64,000 bases of DNA from an uncultured Candidatus Saccharibacteria bacterium (GTDB lineage Bacteria > Patescibacteriota > Minisyncoccia > Phycocordibacterales > UBA2100): contig CAZYLZ010000002.1 in the NCBI GenBank assembly GCA_964648335.1, forward strand, positions 13,637-77,636. Direction: 5' to 3'. Each line of letters opens with the position of its first letter. Positions within the stretch are counted from its first letter, which is position 1. Below are positions 2,090-9,644 of the stretch, piece by piece. The notes under the pieces are model-generated. The model searched no databases, had not been told where the DNA came from, and worked only from the letters and a program-made list of their open reading frames with translations. The translations under genes and the position numbers were made by a program.

Positions 2090-3898
2090 TTAATGACTAA
2101 GAAGCACCTGGAGCGTATTGTACCCTCCGATGGTGGCGTTCGAGATGGTCTGAGTCTGGTAGCCGGCCATACTCACCGTGAGCGTGTAGTCCGAAGCTGC
2201 GGTCACTCCAGCGAACATGGCTTGTCCTGGAGCTGCGCAGCCCGAGACATAGTTGAGACTCATACTGCTCAATACCGGAGAAACCGTAGTGTCTATCGTT
2301 GAGAGATACGCCTTGTACCGGACATACCGGTTTCCGGTCGAGGTCGCATGTATTGTGGATCCAGGAGTGGTGAAGTATGTCGCGCTCGTTCCATCAGGGC
2401 CCAGGTAATTCCATGTGGCGTCGTCGTTGTTCGTGGCTATCTGGAATCTAAGAGTCGTCGAGGCGCTCTGCGATGCTGGCGACCACGAAAGCGTTGTGTA
2501 TGACGTGGATGCCGTCCCTGTATCGAACGTGGATGAGACGAGAGATCCGCTCGCAGCATACGTACCCGCGAACTGCAAAAGACGGACGCCGGTCGGGACG
2601 CCTGTCACACTAAGATTGCCATCATCAGAAAAATACTCGGTGGCGTCCGAAAAGTTTCCTTGCCCTGCTCCCCCGCTCCAATCCTGCTGATTCCAGATAC
2701 TGCCCTGCGTATACTTGATCGAATCAAATCCTGTGCTCGGTCGCTCGAGTTCCACCGTCGCGTTCTCGATAGGATTGCCAGTCGCGGCGTCCTTAACTAT
2801 GACAAGGAGGCTGTTGGCCGTCGTCGGGCCAAGTATCAGCGTCGATTGCTGGCTGGTGTTGGGAAGTATACTTATCTGCTGTATAGGGGATGATCCGTAG
2901 ATCATGCTGCCGGCGCTGGTGATGATCGGCGTGTAGTTGTCCCATTCTATAGAAGAGGACGATACGCGGCCGTTCACATCGCTCGTATAGGTGTAGTCAG
3001 ACTTATAGACCGCCGGGGTTCCGACAAGCTTCGCTCCCCGAAGCTCTACGCCAATCCCGCTCAGAGGAGCGCAGATCTCGTTGACCGTGTTGACTATCAA
3101 GGAGCTGAGGGCGTCTATCGAAAAGCTGATCTGCGTAATCTGTCCGTTTGCAATCGTGGCGTTCGGCTTGGTGGGGTTTGGATTTCCAACAGTGACGGGG
3201 AGCGTCTGGTCTGACGAGTACCCGTTCTTTTTTACGGTGACATGGTAGCTGTTGTTGCTGTCGGGAAGTCCGACCTCGATCCAGTTTCCGTTGGCGTCAC
3301 TCGTTCGTGTGAGGTTGATCGACGGCACCAGGAGCGTGTTGGTTATCTGGATGGTTGCGTTCGGTACCGGCTGGCCCACCGCGTCGAACACCTTGATCGA
3401 AAGCGCGCCGCCGTTGGCGAGGCTCTCGAGCCCTTTGGGTACAGCATTGGTGATGAACGGGGTCACGACTCCGGTGCGAACATTCCGGATATCGAGTTTG
3501 ATCTGTTTGTAGTCGTTAGCTGCGTAATCAGTCGAACTTGCTATCGTGCCGTCGGCTGGATCGTCCACGTAGGTCACCTCGTAGTAAATCTGATATTGCG
3601 CATTGTTATACGTTATGGAAAGCGCGTTTGGTTCGTCCGGCAGGCCACCGGAGGGATTTCCATTTGTGGTCCCTATTTGTCCATAGGGAAGATTCCGCGC
3701 TATTTCGATATATTTGTCAGCAAGGGCCGCAAGAGTCGTCTTTTCGCGATACATGCGCGCACTTTTAGTTATCGCTGCAGATGCTGAAAACACTGCCATT
3801 GAAAGCATGGCAAAAATGCCAATAGCAATCACGGAAGAAAGTAGAGTGAATCCTCTTTTCGCGGAGCGCGCTCCCTGATAAGCAGATGTCTCTTTCAC
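2090..3898 (-). CDS. Large pilin-like protein with prepilin-type N-terminus (602 aa), PilW/PilY-like minor pilin candidate
   Basis: N-terminus KRGFTLLSSVIAIGIFAMLSMAV (prepilin-like but S rather than E at +5); long beta-rich Thr/Ser/Asn-rich body; first gene of the pilin operon. Confidence 0.5.
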   Translation of the reverse strand: MKETSAYQGARSAKRGFTLLSSVIAIGIFAMLSMAVFSASAAITKSARMYREKTTLAALADKYIEIARNLPYGQIGTTNGNPSGGLPDEPNALSITYNNAQYQIYYEVTYVDDPADGTIASSTDYAANDYKQIKLDIRNVRTGVVTPFITNAVPKGLESLANGGALSIKVFDAVGQPVPNATIQITNTLLVPSINLTRTSDANGNWIEVGLPDSNNSYHVTVKKNGYSSDQTLPVTVGNPNPTKPNATIANGQITQISFSIDALSSLIVNTVNEICAPLSGIGVELRGAKLVGTPAVYKSDYTYTSDVNGRVSSSSIEWDNYTPIITSAGSMIYGSSPIQQISILPNTSQQSTLILGPTTANSLLVIVKDAATGNPIENATVELERPSTGFDSIKYTQGSIWNQQDWSGGAGQGNFSDATEYFSDDGNLSVTGVPTGVRLLQFAGTYAASGSLVSSTFDTGTASTSYTTLSWSPASQSASTTLRFQIATNNDDATWNYLGPDGTSATYFTTPGSTIHATSTGNRYVRYKAYLSTIDTTVSPVLSSMSLNYVSGCAAPGQAMFAGVTAASDYTLTVSMAGYQTQTISNATIGGYNTLQVLLSH

Positions 3899-5954: not shown

Positions 5955-6007
5955 CGGTGCTCCTTCGAACACGTGCCGCATGTCACCGTGCGGTAGTATG
6001 TTTATAT

Positions 6008-7564
6008 ATGAAACGAACCATAGTGGGCGTGCTTATGTTGATGAGTCTTGGTTTGCCAGCGATTTCCGTTGCTGCGACGCTCGATGAGCTCAAGAGTACC
6101 CTCGAGGCGCTCACGCGGCAGATGCGCGCTATACAAGGAGCGGCGACAAGGATGTCGGCCGCCGATTCGTCAAGCGCAGCATCGGTCTGCACGATCGCAC
6201 GTGCCGGGTTTGGTCGCGGGCGCTCAGGAAGCGATATCACAAAACTCCAGTCGTTCTTGGTCAGCACAGGATACCTCTCGGCGGCTCCGACGGGGTACTT
6301 CGGTTTGCAGACTCAATCGGCGCTCGCTCGGTATCAACTGAACCAAAAACTGATTGCATCGCTCGAAGGGGGTGGGTACTTCGGGAACCTCACCTGGAGA
6401 CATATCTATGAACATACGTGTACTACGACCGCTTCTGTTTCATGCAAACCTCTTACATACATGGCGATGGCTTGCAAAGATGGAACCGCGTCAGTGGCGG
6501 AGCGTGATGCGGCAGGGTGCATCACCGGATACCGTTGCCCGAATGATCCGTACATGCCGCCTTCAGGGTGCATCGAGTGGAGCGATGGGTGCAACATCTG
6601 TCATCGCGATAACGATGCTTCGAGTGCAGTTTGTTCGGCAAACACATGCGCAACGAGGACTGCCGGTATATGCAAGTACTACCTTGTGACGAACAGCGGA
6701 AACATACCGCCGATCATCCAGAGTGTCGCGGGCCCGCTTTCGATCGCAAACGGACAAAGCGGAACGTGGTCTTTTGTTGCCAAGGATAGTGATAACGCAA
6801 ATCTCACGTATTCGGTCGACTGGGGCGACCGCGCTATCCAGGGGGCTGCGGTAAGCGCCGATCAGACGGTAGCGGCTGGTCAGGTGGCAGAATTTACCCA
6901 CACATATTCGGTTTCAGGCGCGTATGCGATCACATTCATTGCACAAGACCCATCGGGGGGCATCTCACGCAGTACGGCTTTGGTTAAGGTAGGTGCAGTC
7001 GATGCGCTCTGTGCGCTCGATTACACTCCGGTATGCGGACAGCCGAGCGAGCCCGCGTGCCGTAAATCCATCCCTGCATGCATGATTGCCACGCCCGGCC
7101 CGACGACCTATACCAACCGTTGCTTCATGGATACTGCGGGAGCCTCGCTGTTGTACACGGGCGTGTGTGCTAGTTCGGCCACGGCCTGCACTGCCGAAGT
7201 CCGTCAGTGTCCCGACGGGACGTATGTCGGGCGCAGCGGTCCCTTGTGCGCGTTTGCGAGTTGTCCGACAGCGGTCACCTCGTGTACGACTGCAAGCGGT
7301 TCGACGGTAGCCAATGGTCAGACCGCTACTGGTTTTTGTGCCGACGGAACCATGAGCAGCCTCTGTACCGGCATAAAAGTATGTCAGAGCGGACAGTGGA
7401 CCTACCAATCGGGCGATCCTGCGGGAATAGCACGCTGCCGCGTATGGACCGGGAATTGCTCGACGTGTACGCGCTCGTCATACGGTGGACCCTATTCCTG
7501 TGCGGCGAGCCAATGCGATAGCTACAATGGCGCCTCGGGCATGTTCTGTTCGACCTATTTCTAG
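6008..7564 (+). CDS. Secreted multidomain protein: signal peptide, coiled coil, PG-binding-like module, PKD-like module, Cys-rich Kazal-like modules
   Basis: Signal peptide MKRTIVGVLMLMSLGLPAISVAA; GSDITKLQSFLVSTGYLSAAPTGYFGLQTQSALARYQ resembles the PG_binding_1 fold; YSVDWGD resembles the PKD signature; CALDYTPVCGQ...TTYTNRCFMDTAGASLLYTGVC resembles a Kazal core (PVCG...TY.N.C...C). Confidence 0.6.
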   Translation: MKRTIVGVLMLMSLGLPAISVAATLDELKSTLEALTRQMRAIQGAATRMSAADSSSAASVCTIARAGFGRGRSGSDITKLQSFLVSTGYLSAAPTGYFGLQTQSALARYQLNQKLIASLEGGGYFGNLTWRHIYEHTCTTTASVSCKPLTYMAMACKDGTASVAERDAAGCITGYRCPNDPYMPPSGCIEWSDGCNICHRDNDASSAVCSANTCATRTAGICKYYLVTNSGNIPPIIQSVAGPLSIANGQSGTWSFVAKDSDNANLTYSVDWGDRAIQGAAVSADQTVAAGQVAEFTHTYSVSGAYAITFIAQDPSGGISRSTALVKVGAVDALCALDYTPVCGQPSEPACRKSIPACMIATPGPTTYTNRCFMDTAGASLLYTGVCASSATACTAEVRQCPDGTYVGRSGPLCAFASCPTAVTSCTTASGSTVANGQTATGFCADGTMSSLCTGIKVCQSGQWTYQSGDPAGIARCRVWTGNCSTCTRSSYGGPYSCAASQCDSYNGASGMFCSTYF

Positions 7565-7617
7565 GAATTCATGAAGAAGAGAAGGGCCGACCTGCCGTAC
7601 TGTTGTGCGGTGGTAGG

Positions 7618-9234
7618 ATGAAATGTATTAGAAGGCAGAACGTCATCATCTTTATGCATACATTTACACGTCGTTTGCGAACGTACGGTGCCGCAATTGC
7701 ACTCACTTCAGCGTTGGTCCTCCCGCTCTCTGCCTCGGCCGTGACGATAGACGAGCTCAAGGCCCAAGTTGCAGCTCTCATGGCTCGCATATCAGAGATG
7801 CAAACACAGACTCGTGTGGCAGATCCTTCCTCGAGCCAATCCTCACGCATGATGCCTGATACTTCGCGGAGCGTGTGCTCGTACCTTAACCGCAACCTTT
7901 CTCTCGGCAGCCGTGGGGATGATGTTCGTAGCCTGCAAGAGTTTTTGCAATCAAATGGCTACCTTTCGGCACAAGCCACTGGCTATTTTGGGTCTCTTAC
8001 CCGGGCGGCACTTAAAACCTGGCAGGGGACGCAGGGACTGAGTGCCATCGGAAGCATGGGACCACTCACTCGTGCCAAGCTTGGCGTATGGTGTAAGAAC
8101 AAGGTCGATCTGGTGGCGACGCCTTCGTCTGGCGCAGCACCGCTTTCGGTCACGTTCTCGACGATGCTGAGCGGATTCAGGATTCCATCGGTGACCTACA
8201 TTCTCGACTACGGAGACGGAGTTCAGGAAAAGCCCGCAGACTGCCTCGCTCCGGCCGACGCATGCATAGAGCCAGGAAAGAATACGCATACCTACTCGGG
8301 CACGGGGGTATATACCGCCACCTTGAGCATGATTACGAACCCATGTGCGGGAATGGAGCTGACCTGCAAGGCCGCTATCCACACCGAGGTCGTGGCGCAG
8401 ACGGTCATCAAAGTCGGAACTGACGGACCGGTCGCATGCACCATGGACTACAATCCGGTGTGCGCAGCTAAGCAGGTGACCTGCATCCGCGCGCCGTGCA
8501 ATCCAATCCCGACCACCTACAGCAACAAATGCGCCATGACGGCAGACAATGCAGCATATCTGTACCAGGGTGCGTGCAAGGATCCGTCGTACGATCCGGC
8601 AAGCGATGCACAGTGCAAATCGTGGTTCGATGGATGCAATACCTGCTCGCGCTCATCTCCGGGTGGCATGGCGGCTTGTACACTCATGTACTGCGAGAAT
8701 CCGCAGACGCGCTATTGCAAAGCGACCTTCACCGATAATCAACCACCGACCGTCTCGTCGTTCTCGGGACCTACCGTTCTTGCTCAAAACCAGAGTGGTA
8801 CGTGGACTATCAGCGCGAGCGACCCCGAGAACGGGCAGCTTACGTATCAGGTGTGGTGGGGTGATGAAAATGTACCTACGCCCGCAAACGCACCTTCTGC
8901 GTTGTCAGCGCGCGAATTTACGCAGACGACCACGTTCTCGCATTCGTACGCAACGCCCGGAACCTACACGGTCTCGATGGTGGTTCGCGACATCGTAGGT
9001 CAAGAAACAAAGACGACCACGACAGTACAGGTGAGTGGTGCTACGGCGTGCGCCACGATTTACCAACCGGTCTGCGCACGTCCTTCGGGCTGCCTCAACA
9101 CCTGCGCTCCCGGTATGTACTGCACCATGCAGTGTATGCTCGCGACCCCGGTTACCTATGGAAACTCATGCGAGATGAATCGCGTCAGTGCCACCTACCT
9201 GCATGACGGCCAGTGCACGTCGGGCGACTACTAG
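7618..9234 (+). CDS. Paralog of the preceding secreted PG-binding/PKD/Kazal-like protein
   Basis: Same architecture: signal peptide; VTIDELKAQVAALMARISEMQ coiled coil; GDDVRSLQEFLQSNGYLSAQATGYFGSLTRAALKTWQ; YILDYGDG (PKD-like); two Kazal-like cores (YNPVCAAK...TTYSNKCAM...LYQGAC and YQPVCARP...VTYGNSCEM...LHDGQC). ATG at 7618 follows a GGTGGTAGG SD-like element; the ORF track's TTG at 7603 is an alternative start. Confidence 0.6.
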   Translation: MKCIRRQNVIIFMHTFTRRLRTYGAAIALTSALVLPLSASAVTIDELKAQVAALMARISEMQTQTRVADPSSSQSSRMMPDTSRSVCSYLNRNLSLGSRGDDVRSLQEFLQSNGYLSAQATGYFGSLTRAALKTWQGTQGLSAIGSMGPLTRAKLGVWCKNKVDLVATPSSGAAPLSVTFSTMLSGFRIPSVTYILDYGDGVQEKPADCLAPADACIEPGKNTHTYSGTGVYTATLSMITNPCAGMELTCKAAIHTEVVAQTVIKVGTDGPVACTMDYNPVCAAKQVTCIRAPCNPIPTTYSNKCAMTADNAAYLYQGACKDPSYDPASDAQCKSWFDGCNTCSRSSPGGMAACTLMYCENPQTRYCKATFTDNQPPTVSSFSGPTVLAQNQSGTWTISASDPENGQLTYQVWWGDENVPTPANAPSALSAREFTQTTTFSHSYATPGTYTVSMVVRDIVGQETKTTTTVQVSGATACATIYQPVCARPSGCLNTCAPGMYCTMQCMLATPVTYGNSCEMNRVSATYLHDGQCTSGDY

Positions 9235-9644
9235 AGCTCGGCCTTTATCTTCTCTACCGCTTCTTCGGTCTGTTCTTTGTTGAATGCTCCGTGCGGCCAA
9301 AGCTTTAAGCCGTCGTTCTTGTAGCGCGGAATAAGGTGAACGTGCGCGTGGTCGACAACCTGGCCCGCATGTTCGCGGTTGTTCATCATGAGGTTGATCC
9401 CGTCACATTCCATCCCTTTTTCCAAGGCACCTGCGACCTTACGCACCGTCTCTTGAACCTGAGACCAGCTTTCTTTCGATATGGAAAAGATATTGGCAGC
9501 GTGCACTTTGGGAATCACTAGCGTGTGTCCGGGCGCGACCGGATGAATATCCGAAAAAGCGATAGTATGCTCGTCTTCGTAAACGATAAATGAAGGAATC
9601 TCGCCTTTAACGAGCTTACAAAAGATACAGTGTGAAGTGTCCAT
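9231..9644 (-). CDS. HIT-family (histidine triad) nucleotide hydrolase
   Basis: HIT motif DHAHVHLIPRY, N-terminal CIFC zinc-binding pair, 137 aa. Confidence 0.85.
   Translation of the reverse strand: MDTSHCIFCKLVKGEIPSFIVYEDEHTIAFSDIHPVAPGHTLVIPKVHAANIFSISKESWSQVQETVRKVAGALEKGMECDGINLMMNNREHAGQVVDHAHVHLIPRYKNDGLKLWPHGAFNKEQTEEAVEKIKAEL

Follow-up and report, generated by a model that had tools for sequence, protein, structure and literature searches.

The window, which is the whole 64,000-nucleotide stretch of contig CAZYLZ010000002.1 analysed here, comes from an assembly deposited as an uncultured Candidatus Saccharibacteria bacterium and carries on its forward strand two adjacent genes, A and B, whose putatively exported products combine peptidoglycan-binding and PKD domains with Cys-rich modules resembling two unrelated families of serine-protease inhibitor. 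The genes occupy open reading frames (ORFs) at 5957..7564 and 7603..9234, and an earlier reading made from the letters alone (the sequence-only reading) had described them as adjacent paralogs of 519 and 538 aa. Both are real and paralogous. ATG 6008 is the likeliest start of A (6008..7564, +; 518 aa plus stop), with GTG 5957 and ATG 6035 as alternatives, and B (7618..9234, +) begins either at ATG 7618, giving 538 aa, or at ATG 7654, giving the 526-aa form by which its residues are numbered here. The same pair is present in an independent public assembly, where the two genes were called as 509 and 538 aa. A and B share 35% identity over 223 aa (BLASTP, E 2e-33), together with further collinear and shifted segments, and on these alignments they are tandem paralogs.

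Both proteins begin with what are probably Sec signal peptides with AXA-type cleavage sites, read by eye. The signal of A (6008..6076, +), MKRTIVGVLMLMSLGLPAISVAA, has a KR n-region and a hydrophobic core, with cleavage predicted before T; that of B (7654..7740, +) ends in ...AAIALTSALVLPLSASA (that is, ...RRLRTYGAAIALTSALVLPLSASA), with cleavage predicted before V, and the family consensus at this point ends in ASA and continues with LT. What the sequence-only reading had called a coiled coil is a short conserved amphipathic stretch behind the signal peptide. A PG_binding_1 domain stands directly behind the signal peptide in each protein, at 6185..6421 (+) in A (PF01471, E 3.6e-8, 33.9 bits against a cut-off of 23; 55 bits with the family hidden Markov model, or HMM) and at 7873..8094 (+) in B (E 3.3e-13, 50 bits against the same cut-off), where it is flanked by the invariant Cys75 and Cys147. 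A has one PKD domain (6701..6994, +), which passes the PKD_4 cut-off marginally (27.9 bits against 27), scores 22.5 against 23.5 with PKD and reaches 80 bits with the family HMM. B has two stretches matching Pfam PKD (PF00801/PF18911; 48.2 bits against 23.5), namely PKDa (8101..8418, +; PKD-like, four conserved Cys, family HMM 131 bits) and PKDb (8737..9036, +; residues 371-457, E 1.1e-12). The signal peptides, the PG_binding_1 module and the PKD-like segment had all been proposed from the letters, and all three were recovered, the signals as readable AXA-type sites and the two domain types above their Pfam cut-offs. Pfam and NCBIfam searches found no catalytic domain in A or B.

Family HMMs built from alignment A1, which joins B to 79 homologs, give B the order signal peptide, PG_binding_1, PKDa, K1, PAC, PKDb, K2, where K stands for a Kazal-like and PAC for a pacifastin-like module. 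This B-type order recurs in 92 of the 150 proteins collected. A reads PG_binding_1, a four-Cys module, PAC, PKD, K, two more Cys modules and a second PAC, and other members of the family duplicate the K1-PAC-PKD unit or lack one head. B contains 26 Cys and A 32; the B modules each hold an even number (2, 4, 6, 6, 8), and each of the 26 is kept throughout, or almost throughout, the 80 homologs. Judged by this conservation, the Cys-rich modules are not due to chance.

Two types of Cys-rich module

The Cys-rich stretches cut from alignment A1 separate into two unrelated types. The motif C..PVCG...TY.N.C.....Y.G.C, which marks type K, occurs once in A and twice in B. The module of A (6998..7171, +) reads CALDYTPVCG, the insert QPSEPACRKSIPACMIATPGP, then TYTNRC...GVC; K1 of B (8428..8583, +) reads ACTMDYNPVCA, the insert AKQVTCIRAPCNPIP, then TTYSNKC...GAC; and K2 of B (9037..9219, +), which has 8 Cys, reads CATIYQPVCA, an insert with four Cys, then TYGNSC...GQC. 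The family consensus of K1 is ACTKEYxPVCGxKPIVCITTPCNPIPTTYGNRCMMxADGAxFLYEGQC. The module of A and K2 of B were assigned with family HMMs built without the window sequence and with hhalign: K1 and K2 align at a probability of 99.5% (E 2.7e-23), and the module of A matches the K2 HMM at E 1e-15 and the K1 HMM at E 1.8e-6.

Several searches connect type K with Kazal inhibitors. Single-sequence searches of the PDB placed Kazal inhibitors alone at the top, at marginal E-values (A module against GmSPI2, phmmer E 0.0074), and the K1 family profile matched 51 PDB sequences at E<=1, nearly all of them Kazal inhibitors, with GmSPI2 (2.6e-6), ovomucoid (5e-5), infestin (1.5e-4) and an anemone elastase inhibitor (2.9e-4) as the best. 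Pfam Kazal_1 was matched at E<=0.1 by every one of the 78 family K1 modules tried, at best with 1.2e-6. The profile matches cover two separate blocks: one is the reactive-site loop, aCTkeYkPvCg, and the other runs from T-Y-x-N-x-C to the last Cys. AlphaFold2, run on the K1 alignment, predicted a strand-strand-helix-strand module (E12-16, E28-32, H35-40, E44-48; pLDDT 91), for which Foldseek returned just two confident PDB matches, both Kazal inhibitors: LDTI (probability 1.00, template-modelling (TM) score 0.63/0.73, root-mean-square deviation (rmsd) 1.9 Å) and GmSPI2 (probability 0.91, TM 0.64/0.84, rmsd 1.8 Å). Homology and the modelled fold together support the assignment of type K to the Kazal family.

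The best sequence and fold matches, Galleria mellonella silk protease inhibitor 2 (GmSPI2; 2m5x/4hgu) and leech-derived tryptase inhibitor (LDTI; 1ldt), are non-classical two-disulfide Kazal inhibitors of MEROPS family I1, and the K modules have in common with them the loop C-T-x-[ED]-[YW]-x-P-V-C-G, a helix at T-Y-x-N-x-C and the G-x-C at the C-terminus. As in GmSPI2, the K modules have the same four Cys without the C1-C5 bridge, and in the alignment these four correspond to pairs 2-4 and 3-6. Unlike either inhibitor, they carry at the hairpin tip, after PVCG and before TY, a 12-22-residue insert that splits the two Kazal blocks, is not present in known Kazal domains and brings 2 or 4 extra Cys (two in K1, in the module of A and in some K2 orthologs, four in K2 of B), and they form part of a ~530-aa bacterial protein together with PG_binding_1 and PKD domains. 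The extra Cys should, by elimination, pair with one another.

The second type, PAC, is unrelated to Kazal and occurs in both proteins with the pattern CxxWxDGCNxC...CTxxxC...C and the family consensus CKSWxDGCNxCSRSxPGGPAMCTLRAC...YCTAYF. B has one copy (8599..8739, +; CKSWFDGCNTCSR...ACTLMYC...YCKATF) and A has two divergent ones, PAC 1 (6560..6694, +; CIEWSDGCNICHR...CSANTC...CKYY) and PAC 2 (7424..7561, +; CRVWTGNCSTCTR...CAASQC...CSTYF). The PAC profile matched 13 PDB sequences at E<=10, and all 11 of those with E<1 were pacifastin-family inhibitors (PMP-C at 7e-5, also SGPI-1, SGPI-2 and LCMI-II), in alignments that span D-x-C-N-T-C and A-C-T-L-[KR]-A-C. Pacifastin_I was matched at E<=0.1 by 75 of 75 family PAC modules, with 2.6e-7 as the best value. 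The AlphaFold2 model of PAC (pLDDT 94) has four strands, and its top 12 Foldseek matches in the PDB were all pacifastins (36-47% identity, rmsd 1.9-2.7 Å). A full HMMER scan of 1.84 billion representatives with the PAC profile returned 1114 proteins at E<=0.001, among them a midge 'serine protease inhibitor i/ii' precursor matched through 16 repeats (E 8e-24). These matches and the model support PAC as pacifastin-like by homology and fold.

PAC resembles the pacifastins of MEROPS family I19 (PMP-C/LCMI-II, 1gl1; SGPI-1/2) in its C-N-x-C and the preceding aromatic residue, and its A-C-T-L-[KR]-A-C is almost identical to that of the locust peptides PMP-C and SGPI-2; the 36-47% identity given above extends over ~30 aligned residues. 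It differs from them in having an invariant Arg where pacifastins have Cys4, in a first Cys that lies six residues before Cys2 (9-12 in the pacifastin pattern) and in an added invariant Cys, in a C-terminal Y-C, which follows the core on the fourth strand and is the module's sixth Cys. On the simplest reading, a bridge joining the first Cys to the last would take the place of the 1-4 bridge. The sequence-only reading had taken all Cys modules for Kazal and had allowed that they might fail the Kazal topology or be better explained by another Cys-rich fold. For type K the assignment is borne out by the profile, Kazal_1 and structural matches and no other fold fits better, although the classical six-Cys topology is absent; the pacifastin-like class interleaved with the Kazal modules had been overlooked. 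Its count of two Kazal-fitting modules in each protein likewise needs revision, since the Kazal motif is there, singly in A and doubly in B, alongside a second, unrelated type and further Cys modules in A.

Unlike the arthropod pacifastins, PAC is found in bacteria and protists. A paper of May 2026 described pacifastin-like domains outside arthropods, including 24 bacterial accessions from myxobacteria and the Candidate Phyla Radiation (CPR), which were judged genuinely bacterial from genomic context (PMC13388995). That study kept only canonical six-Cys domains (C1-C4, C2-C6, C3-C5) and found nearly all of them by structure alone; the CPR proteins checked are 77-311 aa long and come mostly from Shapiro-, Roizman- and Woesebacteria, no Kaiserbacteria are listed, and a PG_binding_1 or PKD context is not mentioned (PMC13388995). 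The PAC variant is detectable by sequence, yet it would fail the six-Cys filter used there. Tandem arrays with 3 to 13 copies of the variant CxxW[FY]DGCNxCx[RV]...CTxxxC...PxC are also present in P0149, P0161/P0292, P0151, P0157 and P0179; the 13-copy P0149 comes from an MMETSP marine protist transcript, and the dinoflagellate Crypthecodinium cohnii is the source of P0161/P0292. P1 and P1' differ greatly among the repeats of these proteins, and P0149 (82 bits) and P0161 (64 bits) pass the Pacifastin_I cut-off. Because the same variant is repeated in protists, we suggest that it forms a subfamily common to CPR bacteria and microbial eukaryotes.

The Kazal loops of the window read CTMDY (K1), CATIY (K2) and CALDY (A), each accompanied by TYxNxC. 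In Kazal inhibitors such as OMTKY3 the scissile bond follows the second residue past the loop Cys, and in pacifastins such as SGPI and PMP-C the reactive site lies in C-T-P1-P1'-x-C. The P1 predicted in this genome is Met for K1, Leu for PAC and Thr for K2 of B; for A it is Ala in both PAC modules and Leu in K. Across the family the Kazal loop keeps P3 Cys, P2 Thr, P2' Tyr, Pro-Val-Cys and Thr-Tyr-x-Asn-x-Cys. The K1 loop C-T-K-E-Y is nearly invariant (Cys 80/80, Thr 79/79, P1 Lys 70/79, Glu 75/79, Tyr 78/79), the Asn of T-Y-x-N-x-C that supports it is kept in 79/80, and the loop-supporting Asn and Tyr are thus invariant or nearly so. In PAC, 73 of 80 family members carry C-T-L-[RKM]-[AYF]-C, and B reads CTLMYC. 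Such strong conservation of the K1 and PAC loops is not what a mere spacer predicts, and from the P1 residues of the family we predict trypsin-like targets for K1 (Lys) and chymotrypsin-, elastase- or subtilisin-like targets for PAC (Leu).

K2 varies at particular positions. Its P1 is hypervariable (entropy 3.05; Met 26, Ala 11, Glu 11, Thr 6, Leu 6, Asp 5, Lys 4, others), and its most variable column of all (entropy 3.60) is the residue after T-Y-x-N-x-C, which we take to be P18', an enzyme-contact position in OMTKY3 and other ovomucoid third domains. P1 and P18' are two of the three most variable columns in K2. Variability focused in this way on contact positions is the classic mark of a canonical inhibitor.

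Conservation and distribution of the family

The protein collection contains 331 homologs of B, which as a rule match its length and are ~45-55% identical to it; the sources named are Candidatus Kaiserbacteria, Parcubacteria and Minisyncoccia, and the names given are 'hypothetical', 'peptidoglycan-binding protein' and 'PKD domain-containing protein'. Two long relative contigs keep the gene order TIM-PGK-(variable gene)-B ortholog-HIT-RecJ-DUF975-RNase H, so that B is a conserved, syntenic family member; the variable slot before the B ortholog holds an NTP-transferase or a Peptidase_S49 gene there, not an A-like gene. A has an exact match (P0121) and 28 detectable homologs, all at <=40% identity (closest 38-40%), and by this comparison it is a lineage-specific tandem copy with reshuffled modules. 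Tandem PG_binding_1 paralogs with reshuffled modules also adjoin the B ortholog in L005, L007, L010, L012 and L018. Many metagenome-assembled genomes (MAGs) with full-length orthologs (L004, L006-L009, L011, L012, L014, others) are titled 'uncultured Candidatus Saccharibacteria', a label that an automated submission pipeline probably gave generically or wrongly to these carriers of a Kaiserbacteria/Paceibacteria-type protein.

A scan of one genome per GTDB species recovered at least 108 confirmed relatives, so the statement of the sequence-only reading that Kazal inhibitors are rare in bacteria fails inside this phylum. Apart from an arCOG annotation in a sponge thaumarchaeon, our search of the literature turned up no relevant report of Kazal domains in bacteria, CPR included. 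Among the matches listed, full-length proteins occur only in Patescibacteria MAGs, and many relatives from other CPR lineages match the Kazal-like module only. K and PAC modules co-occur in Absconditabacteria/SR1, Gracilibacteria, Peribacteria and others, in small proteins with signal peptides or lipoboxes, where they are arranged as PAC-K-PAC, K-PAC-PAC, PAC-PAC-K or PAC-K-K-K. These small proteins also carry short, insert-free Kazal modules that pass the Kazal_1/Kazal_2 cut-offs (34-47 bits), and they show the insert-bearing K module to be derived from the ordinary two-disulfide Kazal domain.

Two further observations concern these relatives. ORFs in L021, L022, L024, L025, L044, L053, L054, L057 and others (Absconditabacteria, Gracilibacteria, Peribacteria) are complete only when UGA is read as sense (table 25), as expected for some of those lineages, and standard ORF calling truncates them. 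Insert-type Kazal-like modules are also found in MAGs labelled Paludibacter, Methanosarcinales, Hellea, Nanoarchaeota, Caulobacterales, Patiriisocius and 'archaeon' (L023, L041, L052, L056, L063, L074, L076), where they could reflect horizontal spread or mis-binned CPR contigs.

A proposed wall-bound inhibitor and its alternatives

We propose, with slightly better than even confidence, that A and B are wall-bound compound serine-protease inhibitors that would shield the surface of an ultra-small, Kaiserbacteria-type (Patescibacteria/CPR) cell. After export and cleavage of the signal peptide, PG_binding_1 would hold each protein non-covalently on peptidoglycan, and the PKD domains would act as spacers presenting substrate-like (Laskowski-mechanism) inhibitor heads of two unrelated folds: one a GmSPI2/LDTI-like Kazal domain with two disulfides, to which a disulfide-stapled insert in the hairpin has been added, the other a pacifastin-like domain whose Cys1-Cys4 bridge has been replaced through the change of Cys4 to Arg and a new C-terminal Cys. 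The conserved heads of the B type, K1 with P1 Lys, PAC with P1 Leu and K2 with its hypervariable P1, would differ in specificity, and the tandem copy A, with its reshuffled modules, would add heads and widen the range of targets. Such a shield may keep proteases of hosts or neighbours away from the pili and wall proteins of a small cell that is probably attached to a host, and the suggestion of the sequence-only reading that a wall-tethered inhibitor pair could guard the surface is a reasonable one in this light. The strongest contextual argument for protease inhibition is the repeated combination of two unrelated inhibitor folds in predicted secreted proteins.

Comparable designs exist in other organisms. 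In animals, multi-family inhibitors (WFIKKN2, for example, with WAP, Kazal, Ig, Kunitz and NTR domains) and the multi-headed Kazal proteins ovomucoid and LEKTI likewise place several small canonical heads, different in fold or specificity, on one secreted chain with Ig-like spacers, and WFIKKN2 was among the weak PDB matches of the single-sequence search; A and B differ from them in their bacterial host, in the combination of Kazal with pacifastin-like heads and in the peptidoglycan anchor. The oomycete proteins EPI1 and EPI10 are extracellular Kazal-like effectors. In Pseudomonas aeruginosa, ecotin is bound in the biofilm matrix and protects against foreign proteases (PMC5893882). The logic that we infer for A and B, a serine-protease inhibitor kept at the surface or in the matrix, is the same as for ecotin and the EPI proteins, whereas the folds and the mode of retention differ.

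Several points weigh against this proposal. Both module types depart, in their Cys patterns, from the six-Cys arrangement that defines their families: the K modules lack C1 and C5 of the Kazal pattern (1-5, 2-4, 3-6), and PAC departs in its spacing and in the loss of Cys4 from the canonical pacifastin pattern (C-x(9-12)-C-N-x-C-x-C-...-C-T-x3-C, paired 1-4, 2-6, 3-5). Pfam scores for the proteins of the window lie near or under the cut-offs, with K1 of B at 21.2 bits isolated and 16.9 bits in the whole protein (Kazal_1, cut-off 21), the Kazal-like module of A at 12.1 bits against the same cut-off and PAC of B at 25.3 bits (Pacifastin_I, PF05375, cut-off 27.9); Pfam Kazal (PF00050/PF07648) found no match in isolated K2 of B, nor did Pacifastin_I in the isolated PAC modules of A. 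The structural matches have weak E-values, 0.3 (LDTI) and 1.5 (GmSPI2) for the K1 model and 0.27-2.2 for PAC at TM 0.46-0.53 (query) and 0.54-0.66 (target), which we attribute to the tiny size of the domains. In A the loops of the PAC modules, CSANTC and CAASQC, no longer follow the consensus of the family; CT[MQL]RAC is still found at this point in closer relatives of the A type. A Kazal fold is by itself no proof of function, because the Kazal-like domains of follistatin, agrin and SPARC-type proteins are not inhibitors, and PG_binding_1 could bind the wall of a host instead of the cell's own. The literature yielded no biochemical data for any family member. The locus has no linked protease gene in this genome, none is conserved beside the orthologs, and a regular-expression search of the six-frame translation of the window found no S1, S8 or HtrA catalytic motif.

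In an alternative that we regard as unlikely, A and B are surface adhesins or structural stalks whose Cys modules, like the Kazal-like domains of follistatin or agrin, would inhibit nothing and serve as stable, protease-resistant spacers or ligand-binding knobs, with PG_binding_1 and PKD attaching to the wall or surface of a host cell. PKD and PG_binding_1 are typical of surface and adhesion proteins, the number and order of modules are freely shuffled, both module types are off their canonical Cys patterns, and the locus adjoins pilus-type genes (prepilin-like at 2090-3898; type II secretion system (T2SS) E/F in the relative L003). Against these stand the predicted reactive loops, which are the best-conserved non-Cys parts of K1 and PAC, the concentration of K2 variability at canonical contact positions, and the recurrence of the two unrelated inhibitor folds together, even in small proteins that contain little else.

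Inhibition could instead be directed at the cell's own secreted or wall serine proteases, in wall turnover, pilus maturation or autolysis, a reading to which we give a low probability. B is conserved, single-copy and fixed in a housekeeping position, in one relative a Peptidase_S49 gene lies directly upstream of its ortholog, and the near-invariant K1 loop is better suited to an endogenous target that is itself conserved than to an arms race. Yet the hypervariable K2 and the tandem, shuffled paralogs look like diversification against varied targets, and neither a consistently linked protease nor an S1, S8 or HtrA motif in the window accompanies the genes; since no protease is linked to the locus here or in relatives, foreign targets are mildly favoured over the cell's own. 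A peptidoglycan hydrolase-like enzyme, suggested by the JGI name 'peptidoglycan hydrolase-like protein with peptidoglycan-binding domain' and by weak partial NCBIfam matches to SleB and peptidoglycan hydrolases, is highly improbable and effectively refuted, as those matches are confined to the PG-binding domain (~68-151) at 21-41 bits against cut-offs of 236-500, Pfam finds no catalytic domain and the remaining sequence consists of PKD, Kazal-like and pacifastin-like modules.

The prevailing view of CPR/Patescibacteria is that they live attached to other cells, and how their surfaces survive there is little known; the family offers a concrete hypothesis, a conserved gene at a fixed position that sets heads of two 'animal' inhibitor families on a peptidoglycan anchor. 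We extend this proposal only tentatively, and at less than even confidence, to the phylum as a whole: the insert-bearing Kazal module and the Cys4-to-Arg PAC may form a CPR-wide toolkit of secreted inhibitors, with PAC shared with protists, from which Kaiserbacteria would have fixed a peptidoglycan-anchored, three-headed (Lys, Leu, variable P1) inhibitor that shields the surface of the episymbiont. Were this so, bacteria would have yielded in it their first known compound canonical inhibitor bound to the wall, and the sharing of PAC with a dinoflagellate and an MMETSP protist would imply inter-domain transfer or very deep ancestry. PAC also adds to the recent claim of pacifastins beyond arthropods a sequence-detectable, disulfide-rewired variant in CPR and protists, and Kazal-type domains, usually held to be rare in prokaryotes, prove common in this phylum. 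As small, stable scaffolds with natural P1 variation, these modules have practical interest for inhibitor engineering.

Neighbouring genes and the other Cys modules of A

Upstream of A and B lie tpiA and pgk, and downstream a convergent HIT-family gene is followed by recJ, a gene for a DUF975 membrane protein and an RNase H gene. At 9231-9234 the stop region of B and the 3' end of the HIT-family gene (9231-9644, -) share 4 bases, and the relatives L001-L003 show the same tail-to-tail overlap. Just upstream of tpiA, 2090-3898 (-) encodes a 602-aa protein whose N-terminus, GFTLLSSVIAIGIF, is of the prepilin type and which also contains a CarboxypepD_reg domain; at the matching position L003 has T2SS/type IV pilus E and F genes and N_methyl pilins, and we therefore place the inhibitor locus next to a pilus gene cluster. 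Promoter and terminator scans around A and B gave scores no better than those of shuffled sequence. Farther downstream, two slightly overlapping adjacent MscL-family genes (134 and 137 aa; L084 13467-14244, the same sequence as the window at ~14.65-15.45 kb) could be tandem paralogs or one split gene.

A contains three Cys modules in addition to K and PAC. M1 (6413..6541, +; SCKPLTYMAMACKDG...GCITGYRCP), with 4 Cys, is conserved in A-type relatives, and its pattern CxPxxYxPxxCxDG(x9)GCIxGYxCP stands in place of the PKDa-K1 part in A-type proteins (P0102 ~254-291; P0122-P0124). It has no Pfam match, and the idea that it might be a degenerate half Kazal domain was rejected (E 82 against the K1 HMM). 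M2 (CTAEVRQCPDGTYVGRSGPLCAFASCP) and M3, together at 7184..7408 (+), likewise matched nothing in Pfam. The M2 motif (7184-7270), CxxxxxxCP[DN]G[ST][YW]VGR[ST]GPxCxFxxCP, is an optional extra module in the family: it recurs in A-type relatives and at the C-termini of the B orthologs P0013, P0031, P0042, P0064, P0089, P0100, P0103 and P0113, and in L074 (4690-6162), from the MAG labelled Patiriisocius (Flavobacteriia), it stands beside a Kazal-like module in a membrane protein.

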